Shown here: positions 47,100-58,841 of the stretch, piece by piece | Numbering within the stretch: the stretch's first letter is position 1 | Layout: every line of letters begins with the position of its first letter | Source: a virus | Virus record (IMG/VR): IMGVR_UViG_3300036834_000211 | Location: 32,001-96,000 of that record | Strand: one strand, 5' to 3' | Length of the DNA: 64,000 nucleotides | The notes under the pieces: generated by a model | The model's database searches: none | Told to the model about the DNA's origin: nothing | The model's input: only the letters and a program-made list of their open reading frames with translations | Translations under genes and position numbers: made by a program

Positions 47100-47128
47100 T
47101 TGACTTTGAGCGGCAGATGTTGTATAAT
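47100..47128 (+). promoter_or_regulatory. Sigma70 promoter
   Basis: TTGACT-N17-TATAAT. Confidence 0.85.
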
Positions 47129-47167
47129 GTTCACGTTCGAGATTTTTCTCATTGGAAGGAGGTAGAG

Positions 47168-47635
47168 GTGTTGAAGGTCACCAGGGGCACACTCGTTGAC
47201 GCGGCCAAGGATCTCAACAAGATATTGGATCCCGACCCACCGATCGACGTCAAACTTGGGGTACCCGAGCTGCAGGAGCAAGTCCTTGCGGCAGCGAACT
47301 TGTTGAAGGAGGGGGATGCCGTGAAGGGTTCCACTCGAGAGGTGGTGGATCTGCTACGCAGTGGTGGTGAAGACGGAGGTGAGGATAAGGGCGAGGCAGC
47401 CCCGACCACGGCCCGGCGTTCCGGCTCGTCGCTCCCAAATCGATACGAAGGCTCGTCTGCGCAGAGGCTCGACAACGCCCTTCTAAAGGGTGGGAAGATC
47501 GAGAAGATTGCGGATGATCTGGGTATGAACAAGGGTCAGGTCAAAGCGCACGCCAAGTTCCGCGCTAGGTCGGGCAAGTTCTCCCTGAGAGAGGACGAGG
47601 ACGGTACCCTGAAGTTGACCAAGGTCGCTGCATAG
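47168..47635 (+). CDS. Putative DNA-binding protein (C-terminal HTH-like)
   Basis: RBS AGGAGG then GTG; 'IEKIADDLGMNKGQVKAH'. Confidence 0.55.
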   Translation: MLKVTRGTLVDAAKDLNKILDPDPPIDVKLGVPELQEQVLAAANLLKEGDAVKGSTREVVDLLRSGGEDGGEDKGEAAPTTARRSGSSLPNRYEGSSAQRLDNALLKGGKIEKIADDLGMNKGQVKAHAKFRARSGKFSLREDEDGTLKLTKVAA

Positions 47636-47783: not shown

Positions 47784-48353
47784 ATGGATTGGGATCGAGT
47801 TCGCACCGGCGTAGTCGACATCCTGGTGGGTCTAGGCTGCGACTTGAGTGATCCGAACTTCCTTGGCACCCCCGATCGGGTCGTCGAGTCTTACAAGGAG
47901 ATCTTCGGCGGCCTCGACGAGGTGTCTCAGAAGATTGAGGACATCCTGAGCAGTTCGTTCCCGTGTAGTCACGATCAGCTCGTCGTCGCACGAGGTATGG
48001 AGGTGTACGGGGTCTGTCCTCATCACCTACTACCGGTTCGGTACTCGGTCGTCGCGGCCTATCTCCCCGGGTCCGCACCCGGTGGACGCGTTGTTGGGTT
48101 GAGTAAGATCTATCGGCTCGTCAAGCTGCTGGCTGGTAGGCCCGTTCTACAGGAGCAGATGGTCAACGACGTTGCCGAGGCGTTGATGCACATCCCTGGT
48201 TGTCAAGGATCGGGGGTCGTCGCCCACGGCGAGCACTTGTGTGTTCGGATGCGCGGGGTACAGCAGGTCGACAGTGTCGTGACGACGAGCAGCCTGCGCG
48301 GTGTCTTCCTCAGTGATGGTGACGTCCGAGCCGAGTTCATGTCCCTGCGTTAA
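47784..48353 (+). CDS. folE: GTP cyclohydrolase I
   Basis: 'TPDRV', 'CPHHLLP', 'GLSK..RL', 'RP.LQE', 'HLC..MRGV'. Confidence 0.95.
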   Translation: MDWDRVRTGVVDILVGLGCDLSDPNFLGTPDRVVESYKEIFGGLDEVSQKIEDILSSSFPCSHDQLVVARGMEVYGVCPHHLLPVRYSVVAAYLPGSAPGGRVVGLSKIYRLVKLLAGRPVLQEQMVNDVAEALMHIPGCQGSGVVAHGEHLCVRMRGVQQVDSVVTTSSLRGVFLSDGDVRAEFMSLR

Positions 48354-48366
48354 TGGGGGTTTCCTG

Positions 48367-48561
48367 ATGATAGTGACCTTGATTGTTTTCGTCTGCAGCC
48401 TATATTCTGCAGGTGAGTGCAAGAACGTTGAACATTCCGAGTCGTTCCCAAGTTTTGAGGCGTGTCAGTCCAGGATTGACGAGCTTCAGGAGCAGGACTC
48501 TCCGATGCCAGACGTGAAGGTAATTGGTTACACCTGTCGGGATGTGACTGATGAAGACTGA
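48367..48561 (+). CDS. Small Cys-containing protein with hydrophobic N-terminus
   Basis: MIVTLIVFVC...C...C...C. Confidence 0.5.
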   Translation: MIVTLIVFVCSLYSAGECKNVEHSESFPSFEACQSRIDELQEQDSPMPDVKVIGYTCRDVTDED

Positions 48562-49237
48562 CGAGCGTTTCGTTGTGACGGGGGCGTCTTCTGGTCTTGG
48601 CAGGGAGATCTATCAGTACCTCACCTGTCGATATCAGACTTCTCAAGTCATTGGGGTGTCCCACCACGGGCCCGACATCGTGACCGACTTGTCCAATCAG
48701 ATGGGCCTCCTGTCGGTAGTTGCGGAGCTGGTGTCGTGCTCACCGCCACATCTGTCGAGACCCATCCGCTGCCTGGTGAACTGCGCTGGTGTGCTGCACC
48801 TCGGAGATGGCGACGATGCGAATGCGGATCAGATCTTCAACGTTAACTTCTGGGCGCCGTATCACTTGTCGATGAATCTCAGGGAGTGCTTTGTGTCCGG
48901 TGAGAGCAGCGTCATAAACGTGGCCTCGGTCTCCGGTATGATCGCCGATCCTGACACACCCGTCTATGGATCAAGTAAGGCTGCTCTCATCTCGCTGACT
49001 AAGAGCCTGGCGATTAAGTGGGCTCCCCACGTCCGAGTGAATTGCATCTCTCCTGGATTCTTCGATACGAATCTAGTCCCCGAGCCCACCCCGCAGCATC
49101 TGATCGATCGAGTGCCGCTGGGCTTCGAGGCCTCGACTGGGATGATAATCTCTGCGGTCGAGATGCTATTGAGCTGTCCGTACGTGACTGGTTCGAATGT
49201 CGTGGTTGATGGAGGACTGTCGTGCAGGGCAGTGTGA
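48551..49237 (+). CDS. Short-chain dehydrogenase/reductase
   Basis: 'TGASSGLG', 'NCAG', 'YGSSK', 'RVNCISPG'. Confidence 0.9.
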   Translation: MKTDERFVVTGASSGLGREIYQYLTCRYQTSQVIGVSHHGPDIVTDLSNQMGLLSVVAELVSCSPPHLSRPIRCLVNCAGVLHLGDGDDANADQIFNVNFWAPYHLSMNLRECFVSGESSVINVASVSGMIADPDTPVYGSSKAALISLTKSLAIKWAPHVRVNCISPGFFDTNLVPEPTPQHLIDRVPLGFEASTGMIISAVEMLLSCPYVTGSNVVVDGGLSCRAV

Positions 49238-50280
49238 CACCTCGGTACAGTTGCATCTTCATCTCGCGTGCCTGTCCGCGTGCCTGTTCGTACTGTCTCA
49301 GCAAGGACGTCCGCGGTGCAGGATCACTGCTCACACCGAAGGGGTGGGCCGATGCCTTGCGCATACTCGAGTCCCACGGCATCGTCTTCCACCTGATACT
49401 CGGGAACGAGCTGTTCACCTACCCGGATCCGGTGGGATTAGTCGAGGCGCTGAGGCCGTTCTGGGGCCGCTACGCAATCTACTCGACCTTCCCACCCGGC
49501 TATGCGAAGCGGTACCTGGACCCTTGCATCGAGGCGGGTCTGTACAACATCTCCGGTGGAGTGGACGTCCCGGCGGGTATGAAGACTGGCGATCGTCACG
49601 TTGATCGGAAGAGCAGTGAGGTGCTGTACTGGCTCGACTACTGTCACACCCACGGTGTGCCAGACGTCCAGGCGACCGTGACGATCCACCGGCACAACTA
49701 CGATAAGCTGGAGCCACTCCTGGACTACTGCACGGAGCGAGACATCTGGGTCGGATGCAGTCTGGTTGAGGCGAGTCCCGATGGGAAGCACGACTTCTAC
49801 GGTTCGGTCGACTCGATGCGCGACTGGTTGATTCCAGAGAACGAGCGCGGCAGGTTTAGGAGTGCGATGTCCCGACTCGCCAGCCAGGTTTCGTCGGGTC
49901 GGTGGAAGATGCAGGTTCCACCGTCGTACTTCGAGGAGATGGGAGAGCGCGAGGTCGATCGAGATCCGTGGCACTGCAGCCTCCCTTTGCTGATCCACGT
50001 GGAGGAGGACGGTGTCCTCCGCGCGTGCTCCTACCGGGGTGGACTGGACGAGCGCTACACCGTGTTCGACCTGCGCGAGGGCGGCTCCTTGTCGATGTCG
50101 CGGTATATTGAGATGCAGCAGAGGAAGACGAGACAGTGCCCGGGCTGCGGGGTCGGCGGGGGAGCGTGGAGCTACTGGTACATGGCAGAAGAATGGCAGA
50201 AGGGCCTCGTCGAGCTGGGCGACCAGGTGTTCCAGCGGCACGTTCCCGGTTACGAATTTGAGAGGACGAGGCAGAAATGA
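49222..50280 (+). CDS. Radical SAM protein with C-terminal SPASM/twitch-like cysteines
   Basis: 'CPRACSYC', 'GNE'; C-terminal 'WHC..P...H...DG.LRAC...CPGC'. Confidence 0.85.
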   Translation: MQGSVTPRYSCIFISRACPRACSYCLSKDVRGAGSLLTPKGWADALRILESHGIVFHLILGNELFTYPDPVGLVEALRPFWGRYAIYSTFPPGYAKRYLDPCIEAGLYNISGGVDVPAGMKTGDRHVDRKSSEVLYWLDYCHTHGVPDVQATVTIHRHNYDKLEPLLDYCTERDIWVGCSLVEASPDGKHDFYGSVDSMRDWLIPENERGRFRSAMSRLASQVSSGRWKMQVPPSYFEEMGEREVDRDPWHCSLPLLIHVEEDGVLRACSYRGGLDERYTVFDLREGGSLSMSRYIEMQQRKTRQCPGCGVGGGAWSYWYMAEEWQKGLVELGDQVFQRHVPGYEFERTRQK

Positions 50281-51011
50281 GTGATCCTATCATCTACGTG
50301 TTGCTGAGCGGAGGGATCGACAGTGCCACCGCACTGGGCCTCGCCGTTGAGAAGGTGGACGAGGTGCGATGCGTTACGATCGACTACGGACAGCGTCACC
50401 GCCGCGAGATCGAGGCTGCCGCTGCCCTGGCTGAGATATACGACTGCGAGTACGATCTCATCTCGATGCCGATGGGACGGACGATGCTGACCGATCCGAC
50501 GATTGAGGTGCCCGACGTCGACTATAGCGAGATCATCGGCGTATCACCCACCTACGTCCCATTTCGCAATGGTCTCATGCTGTCGACGGTGGCTTCTTAC
50601 ATTGCGGGTCGGCATCACGACCTATCTCAAAGGTTTATCGACCCTGGTGATGGCGGCATTGGAAAGCCACTCAATCCTGATTACGACCGAGACTGTTTGA
50701 TCTACTGGGGGGCCCACGCTGAGGATGCAGCCGGCGGGGCGTATCCGGACTGCACTGCCGAGTTCGTGGGTGCGATGTCGTGCGCGATTGCCATCGCAAC
50801 GTCGCATAAGGTTAGATTGGTGGCACCCTTCGTCGCGATGTCGAAGGCCGAGGTTGTCGAGCGAGGGTCCCTACTGGGCGTGTCGTATCGGTGGACGTGG
50901 AGTTGCTACAAAGGGGGTGAGAAGCACTGTGGGGTCTGTCCTACGTGTCGAGCTCGCAAGAGGGCCTTCCTCGATGCGGAGGTTGCGGATCCGACTGAGT
51001 ACGCCGAGTAG
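50277..51011 (+). CDS. queC: 7-cyano-7-deazaguanine synthase
   Basis: 'SGGIDS', 'YGQRH..E', 'TYVPFRN', 'YPDC', 'TWSCY.G...HCGVC.TC..R'. Confidence 0.95.
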   Translation: MSDPIIYVLLSGGIDSATALGLAVEKVDEVRCVTIDYGQRHRREIEAAAALAEIYDCEYDLISMPMGRTMLTDPTIEVPDVDYSEIIGVSPTYVPFRNGLMLSTVASYIAGRHHDLSQRFIDPGDGGIGKPLNPDYDRDCLIYWGAHAEDAAGGAYPDCTAEFVGAMSCAIAIATSHKVRLVAPFVAMSKAEVVERGSLLGVSYRWTWSCYKGGEKHCGVCPTCRARKRAFLDAEVADPTEYAE

Positions 51012-51013
51012 CC

Positions 51014-51109
51014 GCCTGCGCGTGCCGTCCAGCTTGACAAAAGTATTTTGGGCTATCGCTATAGCCTCCAGGCTCCTCGCTGGGATGGACGAGCCTTAAA
51101 GACGATTTC
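51014..51109 (+). repeat. Dispersed intergenic element copy 4
   Basis: gcctgcgcgtgccgtccagcttgacaaaag...gctatagcctcc (as copy 1) plus tggacgagccttaaagacgatttc (as copy 2). Confidence 0.85.
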
Positions 51110-51122
51110 CTAGGAGAGCAGT

Positions 51123-51494
51123 ATGACTGAGACTTTTACTCGTTTGGTGGACAAGCATCATTCTCCATTGATTTTAAGGAAATATACGAAATGGGGCTTT
51201 CCTGTTTATGTGTCGATCATTGCCGATAACGATTTGAGTGACTTTGATGAAGTGGTAGTTGGGTATGTTGAGGAACATAAGGTTGAGGGGTGGGTTAATG
51301 ATATTCAGAGATTGCGTAATCTTGCTGGTGAATTAACTGAGTATTTGTGTCGAAAATATGATAAAACTGAGGGGGTAGGTGTGATGCTCTACGTCGACAA
51401 ACTGTTTGTGGTCTCTCTATTCGGGGATCATATGAATCATGGTTCGTGCAAACAAGAATTCTATGATTTAGTAAAGATATCTGCCCATATTTGA
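51123..51494 (+). CDS. AT-rich hypothetical protein within the modification cluster
   Basis: RBS AGGAG; low GC. Confidence 0.6.
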   Translation: MTETFTRLVDKHHSPLILRKYTKWGFPVYVSIIADNDLSDFDEVVVGYVEEHKVEGWVNDIQRLRNLAGELTEYLCRKYDKTEGVGVMLYVDKLFVVSLFGDHMNHGSCKQEFYDLVKISAHI

Positions 51495-51504
51495 GGTCAC
51501 CAGG

Positions 51505-52164
51505 ATGAGAAAAGGGTACAAGCAGACATTAGCACATCGAATTTCTCGATTGGCTTGGTTGAAAGATAGTGAGAAACTTAGACAAGCGATTGAGAAGTCG
51601 TCGACATCGCAGCGAGGTATTCGACGCCCTTGTATATCCGGAAGCAGACATCCAAATTATGGTAATATTGGTCATTTGTCTGATCGCAAGTGGGTGACTA
51701 ATGGGATTGAGAATAAACGGATTTATATTAATGAAGAGATTCCATTGGGTTGGCGGTCTGGGATGTTATTAAAGAAGAAGAGTAGTAAAGTACACCGTTG
51801 TTTAGTTGGTTCATTTACGAATATTGAATGGGAGGGATTAAAGCGATACTACGATTTTAGATGTCATTGCTGTCGAAAACAAGAACCGGAGGTTAAACTT
51901 GAGAAGGATCATATAGTTCCGGTCAGTCTCGGGGGATTGAATATTATTGAGAACATTCAGCCTCTTTGTGTTCGATGTAATCGGATTAAGAAAGCCCGTA
52001 TTATTGCTTATAGAGTTAATAGGTTTCATAGTCTAGTTCGTATGCGAGAACGACTAGAGTCTATTCTAAGGAAAAGAGCTGCGTTAGGTTTGCTTGATAT
52101 TGAGTTTACTAGAATGCTGGCCTTCGAATTGGGGGTGCAGCTTCCGACGTCGATTGGTATTTGA
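51505..52164 (+). CDS. HNH endonuclease with NUMOD-like N-terminus
   Basis: 'CHCC......LEKDHIVP.S.GG.N...NIQPLC.RCN'; 'HPNYG', 'KWVTNG' motifs; low GC. Confidence 0.85.
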   Translation: MRKGYKQTLAHRISRLAWLKDSEKLRQAIEKSSTSQRGIRRPCISGSRHPNYGNIGHLSDRKWVTNGIENKRIYINEEIPLGWRSGMLLKKKSSKVHRCLVGSFTNIEWEGLKRYYDFRCHCCRKQEPEVKLEKDHIVPVSLGGLNIIENIQPLCVRCNRIKKARIIAYRVNRFHSLVRMRERLESILRKRAALGLLDIEFTRMLAFELGVQLPTSIGI

Positions 52165-52649
52165 TGTCTTCCATCTCCATCTGGGCACCCCACCCCGACG
52201 ATGAGATAATCGGATGCTGGTCCGCCCTGCATCTAAAGCACCGAGTTGATGACATATCGGTGATCTACTTGTCGGGTGTTGGTGATCCCGGTATAGAGAG
52301 ATCACAGGCGAGGTTTGGTTTTCGATATCTGTACGCAGGATACGCGAATATGGAGGCGGCTGGGCCATATAGTACCGTCTTGGCACCCGATCCTGCGTCG
52401 GATTGGCACCCGCTGCATCAGCGGGTCGGTCAGGTGGCCCAGCATATGTTCCGCGACGGTAAGATCAGGCGTTTGATCATGTACACGACGAGGATGTTGG
52501 CTCCGTACGTATTCGAGGTGGCGAACCCAGCGGCGAAGCGAGCGGCGTTGAACGATTGCTATCCCGAGAAGAGCAGCCTTTGGGAGTCCGATCACAGGTT
52601 CTTCCTGTTCGAGGGCTACTGCTCCTGGTTGCGCCCCGGTGAAATATGA
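52161..52649 (+). CDS. PIG-L/LmbE-family N-acetylglucosaminyl deacetylase
   Basis: 'APHPDDE.IGC' and 'HP.H' metal-binding motifs. Confidence 0.85.
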   Translation: MMSSISIWAPHPDDEIIGCWSALHLKHRVDDISVIYLSGVGDPGIERSQARFGFRYLYAGYANMEAAGPYSTVLAPDPASDWHPLHQRVGQVAQHMFRDGKIRRLIMYTTRMLAPYVFEVANPAAKRAALNDCYPEKSSLWESDHRFFLFEGYCSWLRPGEI

Positions 52650-52686
52650 TTACGTAAGAAACGGCCAATGATCAGGAGAACATAAA

Positions 52687-53622
52687 ATGGGAAGACTAAT
52701 AGTCGTACCTCAGTATCCCGCCAGACTTAGGTATCAAGAGTGGTATCCGCAGCGGATGCGAGAGTATGCCAATCACTTTGACGAGGTCATCTTCCTCAAG
52801 CCCGACACTGAAGCCCTGCTTCCACCATTGGGTGGATTCTCTCCCGTCGACTTGGCATTAGACTACGAGCTCTGTCAGATCAGGACGTACCTCGATCTGA
52901 CACTCGAAGATGAAAACGTGCTGTTGCTGTGCGACCTCAGCTTCCCCGGGCTGTTCGCCTCCGTCCTGTACCACAAGCGCCCCAGTCGTTGCTTTACCAT
53001 CTGCCACGGGACGTCGAGGAACAAGCACGACTACTTTGCCGACTGTCGATCCAGTAAGTGGAGCGTCGAGGGCGGGCACAGTGAGCTGTTCGAAGGGGTA
53101 TTCGTCGCGACTGAGTACCACCGCCGGAAGTTGGGTTGGTCCAACTGCCACGTCGTCTCCTTCCCACTCCCTCGAATTAGCGAACTGGGGGATCTTCACC
53201 CTTCCATCGTACGTGCGTACCGACCGAGTCGTATCGTCAGCGTTGCCCGACCCGGCCTGCAGAAGGTGAATCTGGAGGTCGAGCAGGAGATCGAGGAGAT
53301 GACGGGCAGTCGGATCGTCAGGTTCCACGAGACGGGTGGACGGACTTGGTCCGACTATTACTCGTTCCTGCGGGACGCTGACTTCCTGCTGGTCTCGTCG
53401 AGGGAGGAGACCTACGGCTACCAGGTAATTGACGCGCTATCGGTGGGTACGGTTCCCATTGCCCCCCGCGCGTTGTCGTACCCCGAGTTGCTGCCAGCTC
53501 GCTGTCTGTACGAACCCGGCAGTGCAGTGGATGCGGTCGCTGTGATGGAGCGGTATCCCACTTGTCCGGCCTTGTGGGAAGATACATTCATCAGGGACAC
53601 TGCTCGTATAATGCAAGCATGA
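52687..53622 (+). CDS. Glycosyltransferase (GT-B fold, GT4-like)
   Basis: 'R...QK', 'S.REETYGY...DA...G..P.AP..LSYPEL'. Confidence 0.85.
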   Translation: MGRLIVVPQYPARLRYQEWYPQRMREYANHFDEVIFLKPDTEALLPPLGGFSPVDLALDYELCQIRTYLDLTLEDENVLLLCDLSFPGLFASVLYHKRPSRCFTICHGTSRNKHDYFADCRSSKWSVEGGHSELFEGVFVATEYHRRKLGWSNCHVVSFPLPRISELGDLHPSIVRAYRPSRIVSVARPGLQKVNLEVEQEIEEMTGSRIVRFHETGGRTWSDYYSFLRDADFLLVSSREETYGYQVIDALSVGTVPIAPRALSYPELLPARCLYEPGSAVDAVAVMERYPTCPALWEDTFIRDTARIMQA

Positions 53623-54950
53623 CGAAGAGATTCATCTTCATGCTCGACAGTGGTGCCTACTCGGTGTGGGCTCGATCCAATTCGAACCCGCATCGATTGG
53701 AACTGCGTCGTCGAGTGCTCGAGGCGTTGAAGGTCCACGGGAGCAAGAAGAGAGCGGCTGAAGAATTGGGTATCCCTCTAGGTCTGGTCCAGACCGTATC
53801 CAGTGACGAGGTCGAGCGCAGAGTGACGCTTGAGAACTATGCCGAATTCGTGAGTGGACACAGACACCTGTTCCGCGGTGGTGTGTGGAATTTTGACGTC
53901 ATCGGGTCCGACAAGGGCAGTTATGAGAACTGGCTCGAGTTGCGGCGTCTCGGTGTGGACACCATCCCCGTGCACCACGTCGGCGATGACGTATCGTACT
54001 TGACGAAGTATCTCGACGAGTGCGAATTCGTCGGGATTGGTGCCATTGCCAAGATGGATACGAACAGTAGGATACACGGTCTCGATGACGTGTGGAAGTC
54101 TCACTTGTTGACGGGCGACGGATCCCCCCGCTGTCGAGTCCACGGACTCGGCTTGACTGACACTTCGATCGTCTTGAGGTACCCTTGGTACTCCGTCGAC
54201 AGTACGAAGACCATTGCTGCGGCTGCGTACGGTTCGGTCCTGATCCCAAACTTGAGTAGATCCGAGATCTCATACGACGACCTCATCCCCGTCTCGATAA
54301 GTAATCAGTCGAGGAGGGTCGAGTTGCCGAAGGGCAGGTCATCGTCGAGTTCAAATTTCTACTTCCTTCCCCAGCGTACTCAAGAGGTACTGTACAAACT
54401 GACTGCGGATCTTGGATTTGGGATTAGTCGGACTCTAGAGGGTCGGGTCCTGCGATCGAAGATGACTTCTCGTAAGAGGCAAGATTCGGTATGGGTCAAT
54501 GGATTGGGTATCGAAGCTGCTGTCGAAGTGCAGGAATCTGAGGTTTCGAACAACTTGTCGTCGAGTTGGCGGGCTAGGTATGCTTTTAATCTGCTGATGG
54601 TTGATCGGTTTGTCGAGCATTGGCGTCAACTCGGTCGAGCAATTCGGATCTACAACGTGGCGGGCGGATCTCACGTGCTCGACGTCTTTACTTCTGTGTC
54701 GGACAGTCACCCGGCAAACAGGTCACTCGTCAGTTTCGCTAAGATGTCCGACAACCTGGTAACCAGATTGGAATGTGCGATCAATGGAGATACAGAGAGA
54801 AGTACTATTGTCGGCAATCAAGCTCGTACTGCCGGCGATGGCTCAGAAGGAACTCTTCGACCAGTCAAACAAGATCGCGTTCGCCGGCGGGAAGGTGGTG
54901 GCGTTCAACGACGCCGTCGCAATACTGCATCCCCTTCCTGGCGGCCTTGA
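53619..54950 (+). CDS. DpdA/TGT-like 7-deazaguanine DNA transglycosylase
   Basis: 'LDSGAYS', 'DVIG', 'IPV.H', 'GIG', 'VHG.G.T......YPWYSVDS'; clustered with folE and queC. Confidence 0.7.
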   Translation: MTKRFIFMLDSGAYSVWARSNSNPHRLELRRRVLEALKVHGSKKRAAEELGIPLGLVQTVSSDEVERRVTLENYAEFVSGHRHLFRGGVWNFDVIGSDKGSYENWLELRRLGVDTIPVHHVGDDVSYLTKYLDECEFVGIGAIAKMDTNSRIHGLDDVWKSHLLTGDGSPRCRVHGLGLTDTSIVLRYPWYSVDSTKTIAAAAYGSVLIPNLSRSEISYDDLIPVSISNQSRRVELPKGRSSSSSNFYFLPQRTQEVLYKLTADLGFGISRTLEGRVLRSKMTSRKRQDSVWVNGLGIEAAVEVQESEVSNNLSSSWRARYAFNLLMVDRFVEHWRQLGRAIRIYNVAGGSHVLDVFTSVSDSHPANRSLVSFAKMSDNLVTRLECAINGDTERSTIVGNQARTAGDGSEGTLRPVKQDRVRRREGGGVQRRRRNTASPSWRP

Positions 54951-56025: not shown

Positions 56026-57423
56026 ATGTCCGTTCGACCACTCTTCGACCTGACTCCGGTTCTCGACGTGCCCGAGCGCGGGCGCACGCTGTCGTGCGTC
56101 AGCTGTGGCCTCTACCGGGATGTATTGACGCCGAGGATGCCGCCCCACGGCGAGAACCGTCGCTCCGTCATGGTCGTTGGCGAGGGACCCGGTGAGACTG
56201 AGGACGAGAGGGGCAGGCCCTGGGTCGGCCGCGCTGGTCGACTACTGCGGATGGCGCTCGACGACTTCGGACTCGACCTGGATCGCGATTGCGTCTCGCT
56301 CAACAGCGTGAATTGCCGACCACCGTCCAACCGCGCGCCGACCGGCCACGAGGTTGCCTGCTGCCGATCGAAGGTGGTGTCCCCCGCCGTCGAGCGGTAC
56401 ACTCCCCGAGTCATCCTGTTGATGGGTGGATCGGCCGTCACCAGCGTGCTGGGGCCGCTGTGCCCCGAGGCGCTCGGGGCGTCCTCCGGCAAGAAGAAGG
56501 CGCCCTCCATTGGCAAGTGGCGCGGGATGACCATCCCCGTCCCGGAGTGGGGGGCCTGGGTGTGCCCCACGCACCACCCGTCCTACGTCCTGCGAGAGGA
56601 GAAGCGCCCCGAGGTCGACACCGTGTGGCGCCAGGATGTCCGCCGAGCGCTCAAGCTCCTCGATACTCCCGTCCCTCCTCCGGAGGACCTCAGGAGTGAG
56701 GTCGAGGTGCTTCGCGTCGAGGTCGACATCCTGCGTGCGATCTACCACGCCCACGATGCTCAGTTACTGTCGTACGACTATGAGACGACCGGGCTGCGAG
56801 CCTCCCTCCACAAGATCGTGTGCGTCTCGTTTGCGACCTCGGCCGACAAGGCTTATGCGTTCATGATGCCCGAGTCGGGGCCGATCCGAGGAGCCTGGTC
56901 GAAGCTGATGGTCAGGCACCGGGTGGGCAAGATCTCGCACCACATGAAGTTTGAGAACGAGTGGACGATCGAGCACTTCGAGGTCGAGGAGATCAACTGG
57001 GCGTGGGACTCGATGCTCGCGGCGCACGTCGTCGACAACCGGGTTGGGATCTGCGGTCTTAAGCACCAGGCATTCTTGAACTTTGGGATCCGGAGCTGGG
57101 ACGGTCTGATCGCCCCGTACCTGGAATCCGTCGACGAGAAGGACCCGACCGCGCCCAATCGAATCTGGGAGTTCATTGAGCGCTATGGCGAGGAGGAGTG
57201 CCTGATCTACTGTGGGATCGACTCGCTCGTGGCCTTCCGACTGGCGATGAGGCAGAGGGAGATTATCGGTGTTGAAGCTCACCATGAAGGGGCTGATCAA
57301 TCTGCTCAATCTAGGTTATCACATCGAGGTGGAGAAGCCATCGGAGGAGGACAAGGTGGAGCGTCGCTCCCCTCGGATGACCATGTGGTATCTAGACGGG
57401 GAGACGGGGCTCGGCTCGATTAG
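56026..57423 (+). CDS. Family-4 uracil-DNA-glycosylase domain fused to 3'-5' exonuclease (N-terminal half of a split DNA polymerase)
   Basis: 'C..C', 'VGEGPG..ED..GRP.VG.AG', 'CRPP.NR.P...E..CC', 'HPSY'; Exo I 'DYETTG', Exo II 'H..KFE', Exo III 'YC..D'. Confidence 0.85.
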   Translation: MSVRPLFDLTPVLDVPERGRTLSCVSCGLYRDVLTPRMPPHGENRRSVMVVGEGPGETEDERGRPWVGRAGRLLRMALDDFGLDLDRDCVSLNSVNCRPPSNRAPTGHEVACCRSKVVSPAVERYTPRVILLMGGSAVTSVLGPLCPEALGASSGKKKAPSIGKWRGMTIPVPEWGAWVCPTHHPSYVLREEKRPEVDTVWRQDVRRALKLLDTPVPPPEDLRSEVEVLRVEVDILRAIYHAHDAQLLSYDYETTGLRASLHKIVCVSFATSADKAYAFMMPESGPIRGAWSKLMVRHRVGKISHHMKFENEWTIEHFEVEEINWAWDSMLAAHVVDNRVGICGLKHQAFLNFGIRSWDGLIAPYLESVDEKDPTAPNRIWEFIERYGEEECLIYCGIDSLVAFRLAMRQREIIGVEAHHEGADQSAQSRLSHRGGEAIGGGQGGASLPSDDHVVSRRGDGARLD

Positions 57424-57463
57424 TATCAAATCGATCGACGTGACGCCTGAGAAGGATGGATAG
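57269..57463 (+). CDS. Small ORF inserted between the two polymerase halves
   Basis: Third reading frame; RBS GAGGGAG; overlaps both neighbours. Confidence 0.4.
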   Translation: MLKLTMKGLINLLNLGYHIEVEKPSEEDKVERRSPRMTMWYLDGETGLGSISIKSIDVTPEKDG

Positions 57464-58841
57464 CCTCCTCGACGCCTACCAACTGTTTCACGACGGTGCG
57501 CTGGCACTCGCCGAGGTCGAGCGTGCTGGTATTAGAATTGATACTGAATATTGTCGTGAGAAGCTCGCCTGGTTGGACGAGCAGAGCAGCCGGTATGAAC
57601 GACGCCTGAGATTGAGCGAGCTGGGCCGGGCCTGGTTGGCTCGCTTTGGCAGCGCCGCGAGCTTCGGCAGTGGGCCCCAGCTCCAGGCCGTCCTCTACGC
57701 CGACCTGGGGGTCAAGCCGTTCAAGCAGACTGCGAGCGGCCAGGACAGCGTGGATGAGGAGTCTCTCAGGCAGACCGGGGTGGACGGGATCAACCACCTG
57801 CTCCGGTTGCGTAGCCTCAAGAAGATGAGTGACGTCCTCGGGGGGTTTCTCAGGTATCAGATCGCCGGGTATCTCTACCCCACGTTCTGCCTGCACACGG
57901 TGGTGACCTACCGGTCGTCCAGCCTCAAGCCAAACCTTCAGAACGTTCCAGTACGCGACAAGGAGCAGATGGACATCTGCCGGCGTGCGATCGTGCCGTC
58001 GCCCGGCAACGTGATACTGGAGATCGACAAGAGCGGCATCGAGGTATGCGTGGCGGCTTGCTACCACAAGGACCCGACGATGCTGGAATATCTCCATGAT
58101 CCTGCGTCGGATATGCACTCTGATGCAGCCAAGAAGTTGTTCTTTCTCGACGGTGCGGTCAGCGACCTGAAGAAGCTGGATGGGTTCTCGCCCGTGCTGC
58201 GTCAGGCCGGTAAGAATGCGTTCATATTCCCGGAGTTCTACGGTGACTACTACGAGTCGTGCGCCCCCGGCATCGCCTGCGGTTGGTGCAAGCTGCCCCG
58301 CATCGGCGACTGGACGGACTACGACGGAGCCTTGCTCGATGGGGTACCGATAGCTCGGCACCTGCGTCGGCACGACGTCTCCGGCTTGGTGGACTTCACC
58401 GAACACGTGAGGAAGGTCGAGGACTGGCTGTGGAACGAGCGCTTCCCCGTATATTCTAGGTGGCGGAAGGATTGGTACGCCAGGTATCAACGGAGGGGTA
58501 GCTTTCGGATGAAGACCGGGTTCGAGTGCAGCGGCGTCATGGGGAGGAACGAGGCGGTGAACTATCCCGTCCAAGGGCCCGCGTTCCACCTGCTGCTGAA
58601 GACATTGATCCTGGTCGTGCAACGCATCCGGAGTTGGCCGTCCAAGGTAGTCAGTCAGGTACACGACTCGTTGCTCATCGACACACCGCTCGACCGGGTT
58701 CCGGCGCTGGTGGAGATGGTCAGGCGCATCGATGCGGAGGAGCTGCCGCGGATCTGGCCGTGGATCATCGTGCCGCTGCGTGATGAGGCGAAGGTGAGCG
58801 AGGTGGACGGGAGCTGGGCAAATATGAGGGTGGTGGAATGA
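57456..58841 (+). CDS. polA: DNA polymerase family A, polymerase domain only
   Basis: 'T.RSSS..PNLQN.P', motif A 'D.S.IE', motif B 'R...K....F...YG', 'N.PVQG', motif C 'VHDS'. Confidence 0.9.
   Translation: MDSLLDAYQLFHDGALALAEVERAGIRIDTEYCREKLAWLDEQSSRYERRLRLSELGRAWLARFGSAASFGSGPQLQAVLYADLGVKPFKQTASGQDSVDEESLRQTGVDGINHLLRLRSLKKMSDVLGGFLRYQIAGYLYPTFCLHTVVTYRSSSLKPNLQNVPVRDKEQMDICRRAIVPSPGNVILEIDKSGIEVCVAACYHKDPTMLEYLHDPASDMHSDAAKKLFFLDGAVSDLKKLDGFSPVLRQAGKNAFIFPEFYGDYYESCAPGIACGWCKLPRIGDWTDYDGALLDGVPIARHLRRHDVSGLVDFTEHVRKVEDWLWNERFPVYSRWRKDWYARYQRRGSFRMKTGFECSGVMGRNEAVNYPVQGPAFHLLLKTLILVVQRIRSWPSKVVSQVHDSLLIDTPLDRVPALVEMVRRIDAEELPRIWPWIIVPLRDEAKVSEVDGSWANMRVVE

Follow-up and report, generated by a model that had tools for sequence, protein, structure and literature searches.

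A glycosyltransferase and PIG-L-like deacetylase pair linked to DpdA in phages, and its possible role in a sugar-bearing 7-deazaguanine of phage DNA

In a 64,000-nucleotide stretch of viral DNA (hereafter the window; bases 32001-96000 of the 114,541-bp IMG/VR virus record IMGVR_UViG_3300036834_000211), a phage operon at window positions 47784-54950 combines genes for the synthesis of a 7-deazaguanine and for its insertion into DNA with genes for a GT4-like glycosyltransferase and a minimal PIG-L-like deacetylase. Homology supports a reading in which the operon, together with QueD and QueE encoded outside the window, would make 7-cyano-7-deazaguanine (preQ0) from GTP and DpdA, a DNA guanine transglycosylase, would exchange guanine in DNA for a 7-deazaguanine. 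The glycosyltransferase and the deacetylase recur together near 7-deazaguanine genes in uncultured phages, and more distant homologues of the glycosyltransferase adjoin divergent DpdA genes in cultured ones. We infer, at a little less than an even chance, that a hexosamine is attached to the deazaguanine in the DNA of these phages.

The glycosyltransferase and the PIG-L-like deacetylase

Pfam scores alone are insufficient to assign either protein, and the evidence comes from structure, conserved residues and homologues. The AlphaFold model of the glycosyltransferase, built with 17 homologues, has a predicted local distance difference test score (pLDDT) of 87 and shows the two Rossmann domains of the GT-B fold. 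Foldseek matched it with a probability of 1.0 (E 1e-9 to 1e-7) to glycogen synthase, MshA, BshA and TarM. The pterin glucosyltransferase 9v0l is matched with a probability of 1.0 as well, no better than MshA or BshA, and the best viral match is a GT1-domain protein of Acidovorax phage ACP17 (E 6e-17). Residues R188, K193 and E240, together with the stretch EETYGYQVxDA, are invariant or nearly so in the family, and they may correspond to the donor-binding motifs of GT4 enzymes (the Arg/Lys pair and the E-x7-E region). Furthermore, the homologue encoded by Xanthomonas phage BUDD scores 45.7 bits, above the Pfam Glycos_transf_1 cut-off, and matches the profile of the family with E 6e-30.

As regards the PIG-L-like protein, the motifs PHxDDE and HPxH (P10, H11, D13, D14, E15, H83, H86) are invariant in 17 sequences. 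The family profile matches the diacetylchitobiose deacetylases 3we7 and 3wl4 across both motifs, and for 8 of the 17 members PIG-L is the one family matched (E<0.01, best 2.7e-6). The deacetylases of the paromamine, mycothiol and bacillithiol pathways belong to the same PIG-L/LmbE family. The pairing of a GT4-like with a PIG-L-like enzyme, proposed earlier in a sequence-only reading of the window, thus proved to be real on the basis of the GT-B model, the homologue that passes the Pfam cut-off and the PIG-L motifs.

Co-occurrence with deazaguanine genes in uncultured phages

Scanning IMG/VR with the glycosyltransferase and the PIG-L-like protein yielded 65 loci, which correspond to 50 glycosyltransferase lineages at 90% identity. 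The counts given here and below refer to those representative loci (42) in which the glycosyltransferase gene is flanked by 3 kb or more of sequence in either direction. PIG-L is present in all of them (42/42), in 39 cases at most 3 kb upstream of the glycosyltransferase, and at least one gene among QueC, QueD, QueE, FolE and DpdA is found in 39/42. As for the three exceptions, one has QueC elsewhere on the contig and two lie on contigs that are 17-31% complete. The glycosyltransferase gene directly abuts DpdA in 17 loci. A failure of DpdA, glycosyltransferase and PIG-L to co-occur in related phages had been named beforehand as a possible refutation; what the survey found was PIG-L at every locus and deazaguanine genes at nearly all of them.

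Two arrangements recur among the loci. In the one to which we refer as type A, the order is helicase, QueD, QueE, FolE, (short-chain dehydrogenase/reductase, SDR), radical S-adenosylmethionine (SAM) enzyme, QueC, T-fold protein, PIG-L, glycosyltransferase, DpdA, clamp, uracil-DNA glycosylase (UDG)/exonuclease and PolA. In a jumbo-phage type (180-312 kb), the order is QueC, T-fold protein, PIG-L, glycosyltransferase, a UDG-PolB fusion and QueE; a cytidylyltransferase-like gene sometimes stands between PIG-L and the glycosyltransferase, and a DpdA-like gene follows QueE where one can be detected. FolE was not found in some jumbo contigs, and thymidylate-synthase-like and HD-domain genes lie near the jumbo-phage loci. 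Some clusters include sugar-activation genes (cytidylyltransferase-like, pyrophosphatase-like), and in some relatives a SAM methyltransferase or a pyrophosphatase-like gene replaces the SDR and the radical SAM enzyme or accompanies them. The module always lies amid genes for replication and nucleotide metabolism and never amid structural or lysis genes. The guanine-plus-cytosine (GC) content of the related loci ranges from 24 to 54%, and the phage under study is a GC-rich outlier among them.

The glycosyltransferase family is essentially viral. When the genomes of 185,579 cellular species were searched, a single match was obtained; it lies on a 12-kb contig that shares the phage gene order and itself looks viral.

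Homologues in cultured phages

Using the BUDD glycosyltransferase as query, homologues were found in phages X1, Burkholderia BCSR5, Acidovorax ACP17, Sinorhizobium Phosso and Synechococcus BUCT-ZZ01, and in the PA5oct group. These more distant homologues adjoin divergent DpdA genes in Xanthomonas phages BUDD and X1, in ACP17 and in Pseudomonas phage PA5oct, where the DpdA is a candidate. Both BUDD and X1 encode PIG-L and a DpdL-like protein as well.

The BUDD locus contains FolE, a gene similar to 3'-phosphoadenosine 5'-phosphosulfate reductases, PIG-L, a gene for a 143-amino-acid (aa) protein, the glycosyltransferase, a gene annotated as queuine tRNA-ribosyltransferase, a 123-aa gene and QueE. 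Its PIG-L homologue is annotated as a 215-aa hypothetical protein (L032 7711-8523) with a start called too late; the longer frame matches the hidden Markov model of the family with E 6e-28, from the N-terminal motif on. No similarity to the T-fold profile was found for the annotated 215-aa frame or for the 143-aa and 123-aa proteins, nor any to the PIG-L profile for the 143-aa protein.

In ACP17 (L101 5332-9223), the order is FolE, a 132-aa gene, DpdA (31% identical to that of BUDD), glycosyltransferase, a gene for a 127-aa protein and QueE. The HRHLF motif, described by Cui et al. as that of DpdL, is present in the 127-aa protein. PA5oct (L102 5373-10701) encodes a 540-aa protein with a DSGGFQ motif, followed by the glycosyltransferase and a DpdL-like gene; on this motif, the 540-aa protein is a DpdA-like candidate. 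In both phages, the glycosyltransferase gene therefore stands between DpdA, or its candidate, and a DpdL-like T-fold gene, and all three are annotated as hypothetical.

Our searches made no link between the DpdA of the window and the BUDD/ACP17 DpdA group and detected no similarity for the PA5oct candidate. The glycosyltransferase thus recurs with at least three divergent types of DpdA (one of them the PA5oct candidate), which these searches did not connect, and with different polymerases (PolA vs PolB), which argues that its association with DpdA was not inherited with one DpdA clade and that shared descent is insufficient to explain it.

Two published results concern these phages. The DNA of PA5oct resists several restriction enzymes whose sites contain G, a pattern that points to modified G, and it is targeted by nucleases specific for hypermodified DNA; the 2025 preprint reporting this names QueE and PTPS genes and gives no structure of the modification (PMC12191111). 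Moreover, Cui et al. found that dpdL and dpdA of ACP17 expressed in Escherichia coli gave no 2'-deoxy-7-deazaguanine (dDG) and suggested that further enzymes may be required (PMC10516641).

The preQ0 pathway and DpdA

The identification of preQ0 genes and of DpdA by homology bears out the proposal that the operon is a 7-deazaguanine DNA-modification cluster. FolE matches its Pfam family with 155 bits and its NCBIfam model with 165.9 bits (cut-off 162). QueC scores 172 bits in Pfam and 148 bits against TIGR00364 (cut-off 150); it is full length, and the zinc-binding Cys motif at its C terminus (SCY...CGVCPTC) is intact. The other two genes lie about 19 kb downstream, beyond the window: QueD at genome positions 101603-102037, above its curated cut-off, and a QueE-like radical SAM enzyme at 102889-103854, whose five best NCBIfam matches are all QueE models (53-77 bits, each under its cut-off). 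With FolE and QueC in the window and QueD and QueE elsewhere in the genome, the preQ0 pathway is complete, and the SDR and the radical SAM enzyme of the window are therefore extras.

The QueD and QueE genes have as neighbours ThyX, a Gpt-like phosphoribosyltransferase and a class II ribonucleotide reductase. Within genome positions 101603-104261 (L004 5603-8261), QueD, the ThyX-like gene, QueE and the phosphoribosyltransferase-like gene (136 aa, xanthine/guanine type) are grouped, and a phosphoribosyltransferase-like gene lies near QueE in PA5oct as well. This enzyme could serve the salvage of guanine freed by DpdA, or it could ribosylate a deazapurine.

The QueC of relatives differs from that of the window. 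It is about 182 aa long (e.g., L013 6519-7064; proteins P0021 and P0028) and ends exactly where the four zinc-binding cysteines of canonical QueC begin. The T-fold gene directly follows this short QueC, and in two metagenomic proteins the two are fused. From its sequence, the short form looks like a variant QueC, the reaction of which may be modified.

DpdA matches phrog_887 with E 2.2e-32. By tblastn, a stretch of about 200 residues is about 30% identical to phage proteins annotated as queuine tRNA-ribosyltransferases (Vid5, NP1, PaMx25 and others; 165 records). It gave no match to the Pfam tRNA-guanine transglycosylase (TGT) family, and none was found in a DpdA profile search of sequences in the Protein Data Bank (PDB). 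The motifs DSGAY (D10) and SVDS (D194) are invariant in 14 homologues, and their aspartates may correspond to the catalytic ones of TGT, judging from the DSGGFQ motif of that family. The DpdA family is basic (median isoelectric point, pI, 9.3), whereas the glycosyltransferase, PIG-L and T-fold families range from 5.5 to 7.1, like FolE and QueC.

The DpdA frame overlaps the clamp gene by 175 nt (54775-54950). Its last approximately 55 residues have no counterpart in the relatives, and the protein has 443 aa here vs 311-362 aa there. This may reflect loss of the ancestral stop codon, or the long overlap may be genuine.

The T-fold protein and the HNH insertion

The sequence-only reading had not listed the 123-aa gene between QueC and PIG-L. 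Its product is kept at this place in relatives, with 46-61% identity. The predicted structure (pLDDT 86) has the bb-aa-bb topology of T-fold proteins, and VIA-align gave Z scores of 12.6 for GTP cyclohydrolase I, 9.7 for the QueF-like protein 5jyx, 8-9 for dihydroneopterin aldolase and 8.2 for QueF 4f8b. We reject a function as QueF or QueF-like enzyme, as there is no invariant cysteine in 14 homologues: C109 is absent from one of them, and the cysteine of the DKC motif is a leucine in the window protein.

It is a small family: a set of 1.84 billion proteins contained 102 representatives. In metagenomic proteins, it is fused to QueC or to nucleoside-deoxyribosyltransferase-like domains. No tblastn match was found in cultured phages, nothing meaningful among PDB sequences searched with the profile, and no usable match in the ESM Atlas. 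When viral contigs were scanned, the QueC-T-fold fusion retrieved one unfused relative and the nucleoside-deoxyribosyltransferase-T-fold fusion none. The predicted complex between the short QueC of a relative and the T-fold protein scored 0.00, which bears neither way on their interaction. The QueC fusions and the short QueC of relatives, devoid of the zinc cysteines, link the T-fold protein with QueC and with reactions of the free base. It is probably a partner of QueC that binds a deazaguanine or a pterin-like ring.

The HNH endonuclease gene, also missing from the earlier list, is a mobile element that separates the T-fold gene from PIG-L and has no part in the pathway; no such gene was found at that position in any related locus examined. 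The T-fold and HNH genes (51123-52164) form an island of 39-40% GC with sharp edges, flanked by DNA of 56-62% GC. Coherently, the T-fold protein is 56-61% identical to proteins of low-GC contigs vs 46% to that of the nearest relatives. The two observations together suggest that the T-fold gene was replaced along with the homing endonuclease by co-conversion.

The SDR and the radical SAM enzyme

The SDR matches adh_short with 92 bits and carries the motifs TGASSGLG (TGxxxGxG) and YGSSK (YxxxK). Its closest solved relatives are generic ketoreductases, and it has sub-threshold matches to pteridine and dihydromonapterin reductases.

The radical SAM enzyme matches Pfam Radical_SAM with 39 bits, and its sole NCBIfam match is a weak one to PqqE. 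The claim that it is not QueE holds: no NCBIfam QueE model matches it at E<0.01, and the genome has a separate QueE-like gene. The CX3CX2C motif (C18, C22, C25) and four further cysteines (C252, C269, C306, C309) are invariant in 12 sequences. The C-terminal four-Cys region appears, from its spacing, to be twitch/SPASM-like, of the kind that holds an auxiliary cluster; no Pfam SPASM match was found. In profile searches, the best solved relative is SkfB (E 2e-6), and the neighbours found by a feature-based comparison are viral radical SAM families, some with SPASM.

Both genes do belong to the cluster of the window, as had been proposed. Their membership in its core did not stand: the radical SAM enzyme is present in 17/42 and the SDR in 10/42 of the representative loci, and neither occurs in the jumbo-phage versions or in BUDD. 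We regard them as accessory, lineage-specific tailoring enzymes.

Comparison with known systems

The operon resembles the described deazaguanine systems of phages (Hutinet 2019, PMC6884629; Cui 2023, PMC10516641) in the base pathway, in the kind of inserting enzyme, in the combination of a core with optional tailoring genes and in its place within a replication module. The tailoring enzymes differ. Those described so far in phages are Gat-QueC, QueF, DpdL, DpdM and DpdN, without any glycosyltransferase or deacetylase (PMC6884629, PMC10516641), whereas here they comprise a GT4-like and a PIG-L-like enzyme, a new T-fold family, a twitch-type radical SAM enzyme and an SDR. Our literature search found no paper linking a glycosyltransferase or a PIG-L enzyme to DpdA, nor any describing a sugar-bearing deazaguanine in DNA, in agreement with the earlier statement that the known phage deazaguanines carry no added sugar.

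Pairs of GT4 and PIG-L enzymes act in the mycothiol, bacillithiol, glycosylphosphatidylinositol-anchor and paromamine pathways. The phage pair is like MshA/MshB, BshA/BshB, PIG-A/PIG-L and the paromamine enzymes in that a GT4-type and a PIG-L-type gene adjoin each other and the PIG-L catalytic motifs are kept. It is unlike the MshA/MshB-type pairs in its sequence (12-14% identity), in the minimal size of its PIG-L protein (about 160 aa) and in its context of viral DNA modification. Furthermore, the acceptor in the phage would presumably be a deazapurine, rather than the inositol phosphate, malate or 2-deoxystreptamine of the MshA, BshA and paromamine systems.

Another parallel is huimycin biosynthesis, in which HuiG puts N-acetylglucosamine (GlcNAc) on a preQ0 derivative; the glycosyltransferases of that family carry PF13439 (bioRxiv 10.64898/2026.04.15.718813; PMC7439116). 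Compared by description, the two systems would share the transfer of a GlcNAc-type sugar to a preQ0-derived base, which is predicted for the phage, and a SAM methyltransferase is present in the clusters of some relatives of the phage. Unlike the DNA base predicted for the phage, huimycin is a free metabolite, and its clusters are without DpdA or deacetylase.

AprD4 and AprD3, a radical SAM dehydratase and an NADPH reductase, together remove the C3' oxygen from the glucosamine of paromamine (PMC5461906). The likeness to the phage operon, in which a radical SAM enzyme and a reductase stand in a cluster with a putative amino-sugar glycosyltransferase and a deacetylase, is one of pathway logic only; unlike AprD4, the phage enzyme bears four cysteines in a twitch-like region, and its best solved relative is SkfB.

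Finally, the phage T4 alpha- and beta-glucosyltransferases are GT-B enzymes that glycosylate a modified base of phage DNA against restriction, as is predicted here. The T4-type enzymes act after replication on the hydroxymethyl group of 5-hydroxymethylcytosine, they are not among the best structural matches, and the phage family is not notably basic.

Proposed mechanism and alternative explanations

In the mechanism that we propose, FolE would convert GTP to dihydroneopterin triphosphate and, with QueD, QueE and QueC, lead from GTP to the free base preQ0. The T-fold protein would work with QueC and hold the deazaguanine ring. The GT4-like enzyme would add an N-acetylhexosamine to the deazaguanine or to the side chain at C7; in the simplest case this sugar would be GlcNAc, with UDP-GlcNAc as the donor. 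Removal of the acetyl group by the PIG-L enzyme would expose an amine, free and positively charged. In the lineages that have them, the twitch-type radical SAM enzyme and the SDR, or the methyltransferase, might tailor the product further, with AprD4/AprD3 as a precedent for deoxygenation of the sugar. DpdA would swap the 7-deazaguanine in for guanine in phage DNA. The outcome would be a bulky cationic G analogue able to block restriction enzymes and other nucleases.

We slightly favour tailoring of the free base followed by insertion through DpdA over glycosylation of the DNA in the manner of T4. The hint comes from the pI of the tailoring families, set against that of DpdA, from the fusions of the T-fold protein to small-molecule enzymes and from the precedent of huimycin.

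As a broader and somewhat more tentative proposal, the DpdA-linked GT4-like glycosyltransferases may mark an unrecognised class of sugar-bearing 7-deazaguanine bases of phage DNA, comprising about 50 uncultured lineages as well as PA5oct, ACP17, BCSR5 and BUDD/X1. In the subgroup with PIG-L, to which the phage under study belongs, the base would bear a free-amine hexosamine, maybe deoxygenated by the radical SAM enzyme and the SDR. The sugar would be assembled before insertion, while the base is still free, and the DpdA that inserts the product would have an enlarged pocket.

Several points weigh against a hexosamine on the deazaguanine. Both central assignments fall below the Pfam thresholds: the PIG-L-like protein has E 1e-4 and 23.1 bits against a cut-off of 28.2, and the glycosyltransferase has 18-19 bits to Glycos_transf_1 against cut-offs of 26-27. 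An amino sugar cannot be general, because ACP17 and PA5oct have the glycosyltransferase and no PIG-L gene was found in their genomes (it is present in BUDD). The variable presence of the SDR and the radical SAM enzyme may mean that their role is unrelated to the sugar. An O-glycoside would require a hydroxyl group, which all known DNA deazaguanines lack, and the pocket of TGT-type enzymes normally reads the 2-amino group and a small substituent at C7. The argument from pI is itself weak.

Other readings of the same genes have to be considered. The sugar might be joined through an amide or amidine: the glycosyltransferase and PIG-L would make a glucosaminide, and QueC with the T-fold protein would join its amine to the C7 carboxyl or nitrile of the deazaguanine, giving an N-substituted 7-amido- or 7-amidino-deazaguanine, by analogy with MshC and BshC, which acylate the amine freed by MshB and BshB. 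This route would explain why an amine has to be freed, it agrees with the gene order QueC, T-fold protein, PIG-L, glycosyltransferase, and it draws on QueC being an ATP-dependent adenylating enzyme, the reaction of which seems modified in the relatives with the 182-aa form next to or fused with the T-fold protein. Amides derived from 7-carboxy-7-deazaguanine (CDG) by way of adenylated CDG occur in natural products (bioRxiv 10.64898/2026.04.15.718813). We consider it unlikely, given that the window QueC is canonical, full length and fit for ordinary preQ0 synthesis, that the T-fold protein has no invariant cysteine for a QueF-like nitrile chemistry, that the glycosyltransferase would need yet another acceptor, and that the route is purely inferential. 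To the same degree improbable is an ordinary modification of the 2'-deoxy-7-cyano- or 2'-deoxy-7-amido-7-deazaguanine type (dPreQ0, dADG), with the glycosyltransferase and PIG-L acting on another target (a precursor of the host envelope, a virion protein or some other base of the DNA) and only happening to share the early/replication operon. Phage glycosyltransferases with targets other than DNA are common. Against such a separate target stand the linkage to deazaguanine genes, which holds in three cluster architectures and with divergent types of DpdA, the translational coupling of the glycosyltransferase to DpdA and the constant position of the module among replication and nucleotide-metabolism genes. 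As to another DNA base, a UDG domain accompanies the polymerase here, fusions of this kind have been tied to phages with glycosylated thymidine derivatives (2026 paper, PMC13697223), and the jumbo-phage loci have the thymidylate-synthase-like and HD-domain genes nearby. The genome under study has only one glycosyltransferase and no ThyA-like hydroxymethylase, and thymidine hypermodification in this phage is weakened by the lack of a ThyA-like gene.

The product might also be a diffusible small molecule acting on the host, either a huimycin- or aminoglycoside-like 7-deazapurine glycoside or a pterin glucosaminide of the solfapterin/tepidopterin type, for which the T-fold protein, the SDR, the glycosyltransferase and PIG-L would convert the FolE product. 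We hold this slightly more improbable still. A pterin acceptor would accord with the structural match to 9v0l, with the SDR matches to pteridine and dihydromonapterin reductases and with the likeness of the T-fold protein to GTP cyclohydrolase I and dihydroneopterin aldolase; yet the 9v0l match does not exceed those to MshA and BshA, the SDR is absent from most lineages, and FolE is absent from some jumbo contigs. Likewise, the neutral to acidic pI of the tailoring proteins is typical of small-molecule enzymes, and huimycin exists as a metabolite in the form of a GlcNAc-preQ0 conjugate. The validated clusters for 7-deazapurine metabolites, however, are reported to be without DpdA (bioRxiv 10.64898/2026.04.15.718813), while here DpdA overlaps the glycosyltransferase, and the cluster showed neither a transporter nor a resistance gene. 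Both the diffusible glycoside and the unrelated target fit the linkage data less well than a hexosamine on the deazaguanine.

The 7-deazaguanines described in DNA are all small (nitrile, amide, amidine, aminomethyl with its methyl and formyl forms, carboxyl, unsubstituted), and among the bases of phage DNA, pyrimidines are the only ones known so far to carry sugars. A hexosamine-deazaguanine would therefore be a new kind of DNA base, in which the 7-deaza ring and a bulky cationic sugar combine two escape strategies. It would bear on the modified G of PA5oct and on the failed reconstitution with dpdA and dpdL of ACP17, and also on how restriction enzymes, CRISPR nucleases, modification-dependent nucleases and sequencing chemistries act on such DNA. 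A deazapurine glycosyltransferase and a DpdA accepting bulky bases would be tools for site-specific DNA labelling. The module is widespread in uncultured phages, and its presence in cultured ones makes the proposal directly testable.

Genomic setting and layout of the operon

The phage record has 61% GC and a CheckV completeness of 94%. One soil-metagenome DNA run contains the stretch and is probably its source; no RNA run was listed with it, and no near-identical DNA was found among 50,697 phage records. The operon sits within a module for replication and nucleotide metabolism. Its upstream neighbours are a dCTP-deaminase-like gene and a DnaB-like helicase, and downstream are found a sliding clamp, a protein with UDG and 3'-5' exonuclease domains, a separate PolA polymerase domain, a clamp loader, a protein similar to single-stranded DNA-binding proteins and RecA.

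The features are collected in Table 1. The seven genes named in the sequence-only reading (FolE, SDR, radical SAM enzyme, QueC, PIG-L, glycosyltransferase, DpdA) were all found on the plus strand at the coordinates claimed; the list was incomplete, lacking the T-fold and HNH genes, plus QueD and QueE beyond the window. The genes are tightly packed, as had been observed, with overlaps at three junctions: 16 nt between SDR and radical SAM enzyme, 4 nt between radical SAM enzyme and QueC, and 4 nt (ATGA) between glycosyltransferase and DpdA.

Table 1. Features of the operon and the gene preceding it (window positions)
Product	Position	Strand	Basis
172-aa protein without family	47117..47635	+	same slot in related loci
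FolE, GTP cyclohydrolase I	47784..48353	+	Pfam PF01227, NCBIfam NF006826
Classical SDR	48551..49237	+	adh_short, SDR motifs
Non-QueE radical SAM enzyme	49222..50280	+	Pfam Radical_SAM, Cys motifs
QueC, preQ0 synthase	50277..51011	+	Pfam QueC
123-aa T-fold protein (u123)	51123..51494	+	predicted structure, conservation
HNH homing endonuclease	51505..52164	+	Pfam HNH_5 E 1.5e-13
Minimal PIG-L/LmbE-type metal-dependent de-N-acetylase, ~160 aa	52164..52649 (alternative start 52161)	+	motifs, profile
GT-B fold GT4-like nucleotide-sugar glycosyltransferase	52687..53622	+	AlphaFold model, Foldseek
DpdA, DNA guanine transglycosylase	53619..54950	+	phrog_887, tblastn

The 172-aa protein upstream of FolE matched no Pfam or PHROG family. 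It has a helical N-terminal part, an acidic low-complexity linker, which is far longer in relatives, and a conserved C-terminal motif, EGSxAQ...KAHxKFR. In several related loci, its homologues are encoded between QueE and FolE or directly upstream of FolE. A regulatory or accessory role is possible, and whether the protein belongs to the system is uncertain. Downstream, the DNA polymerase is split, with the UDG and 3'-5' exonuclease domains encoded at 56026-57423 and the PolA polymerase domain at 57456-58841.

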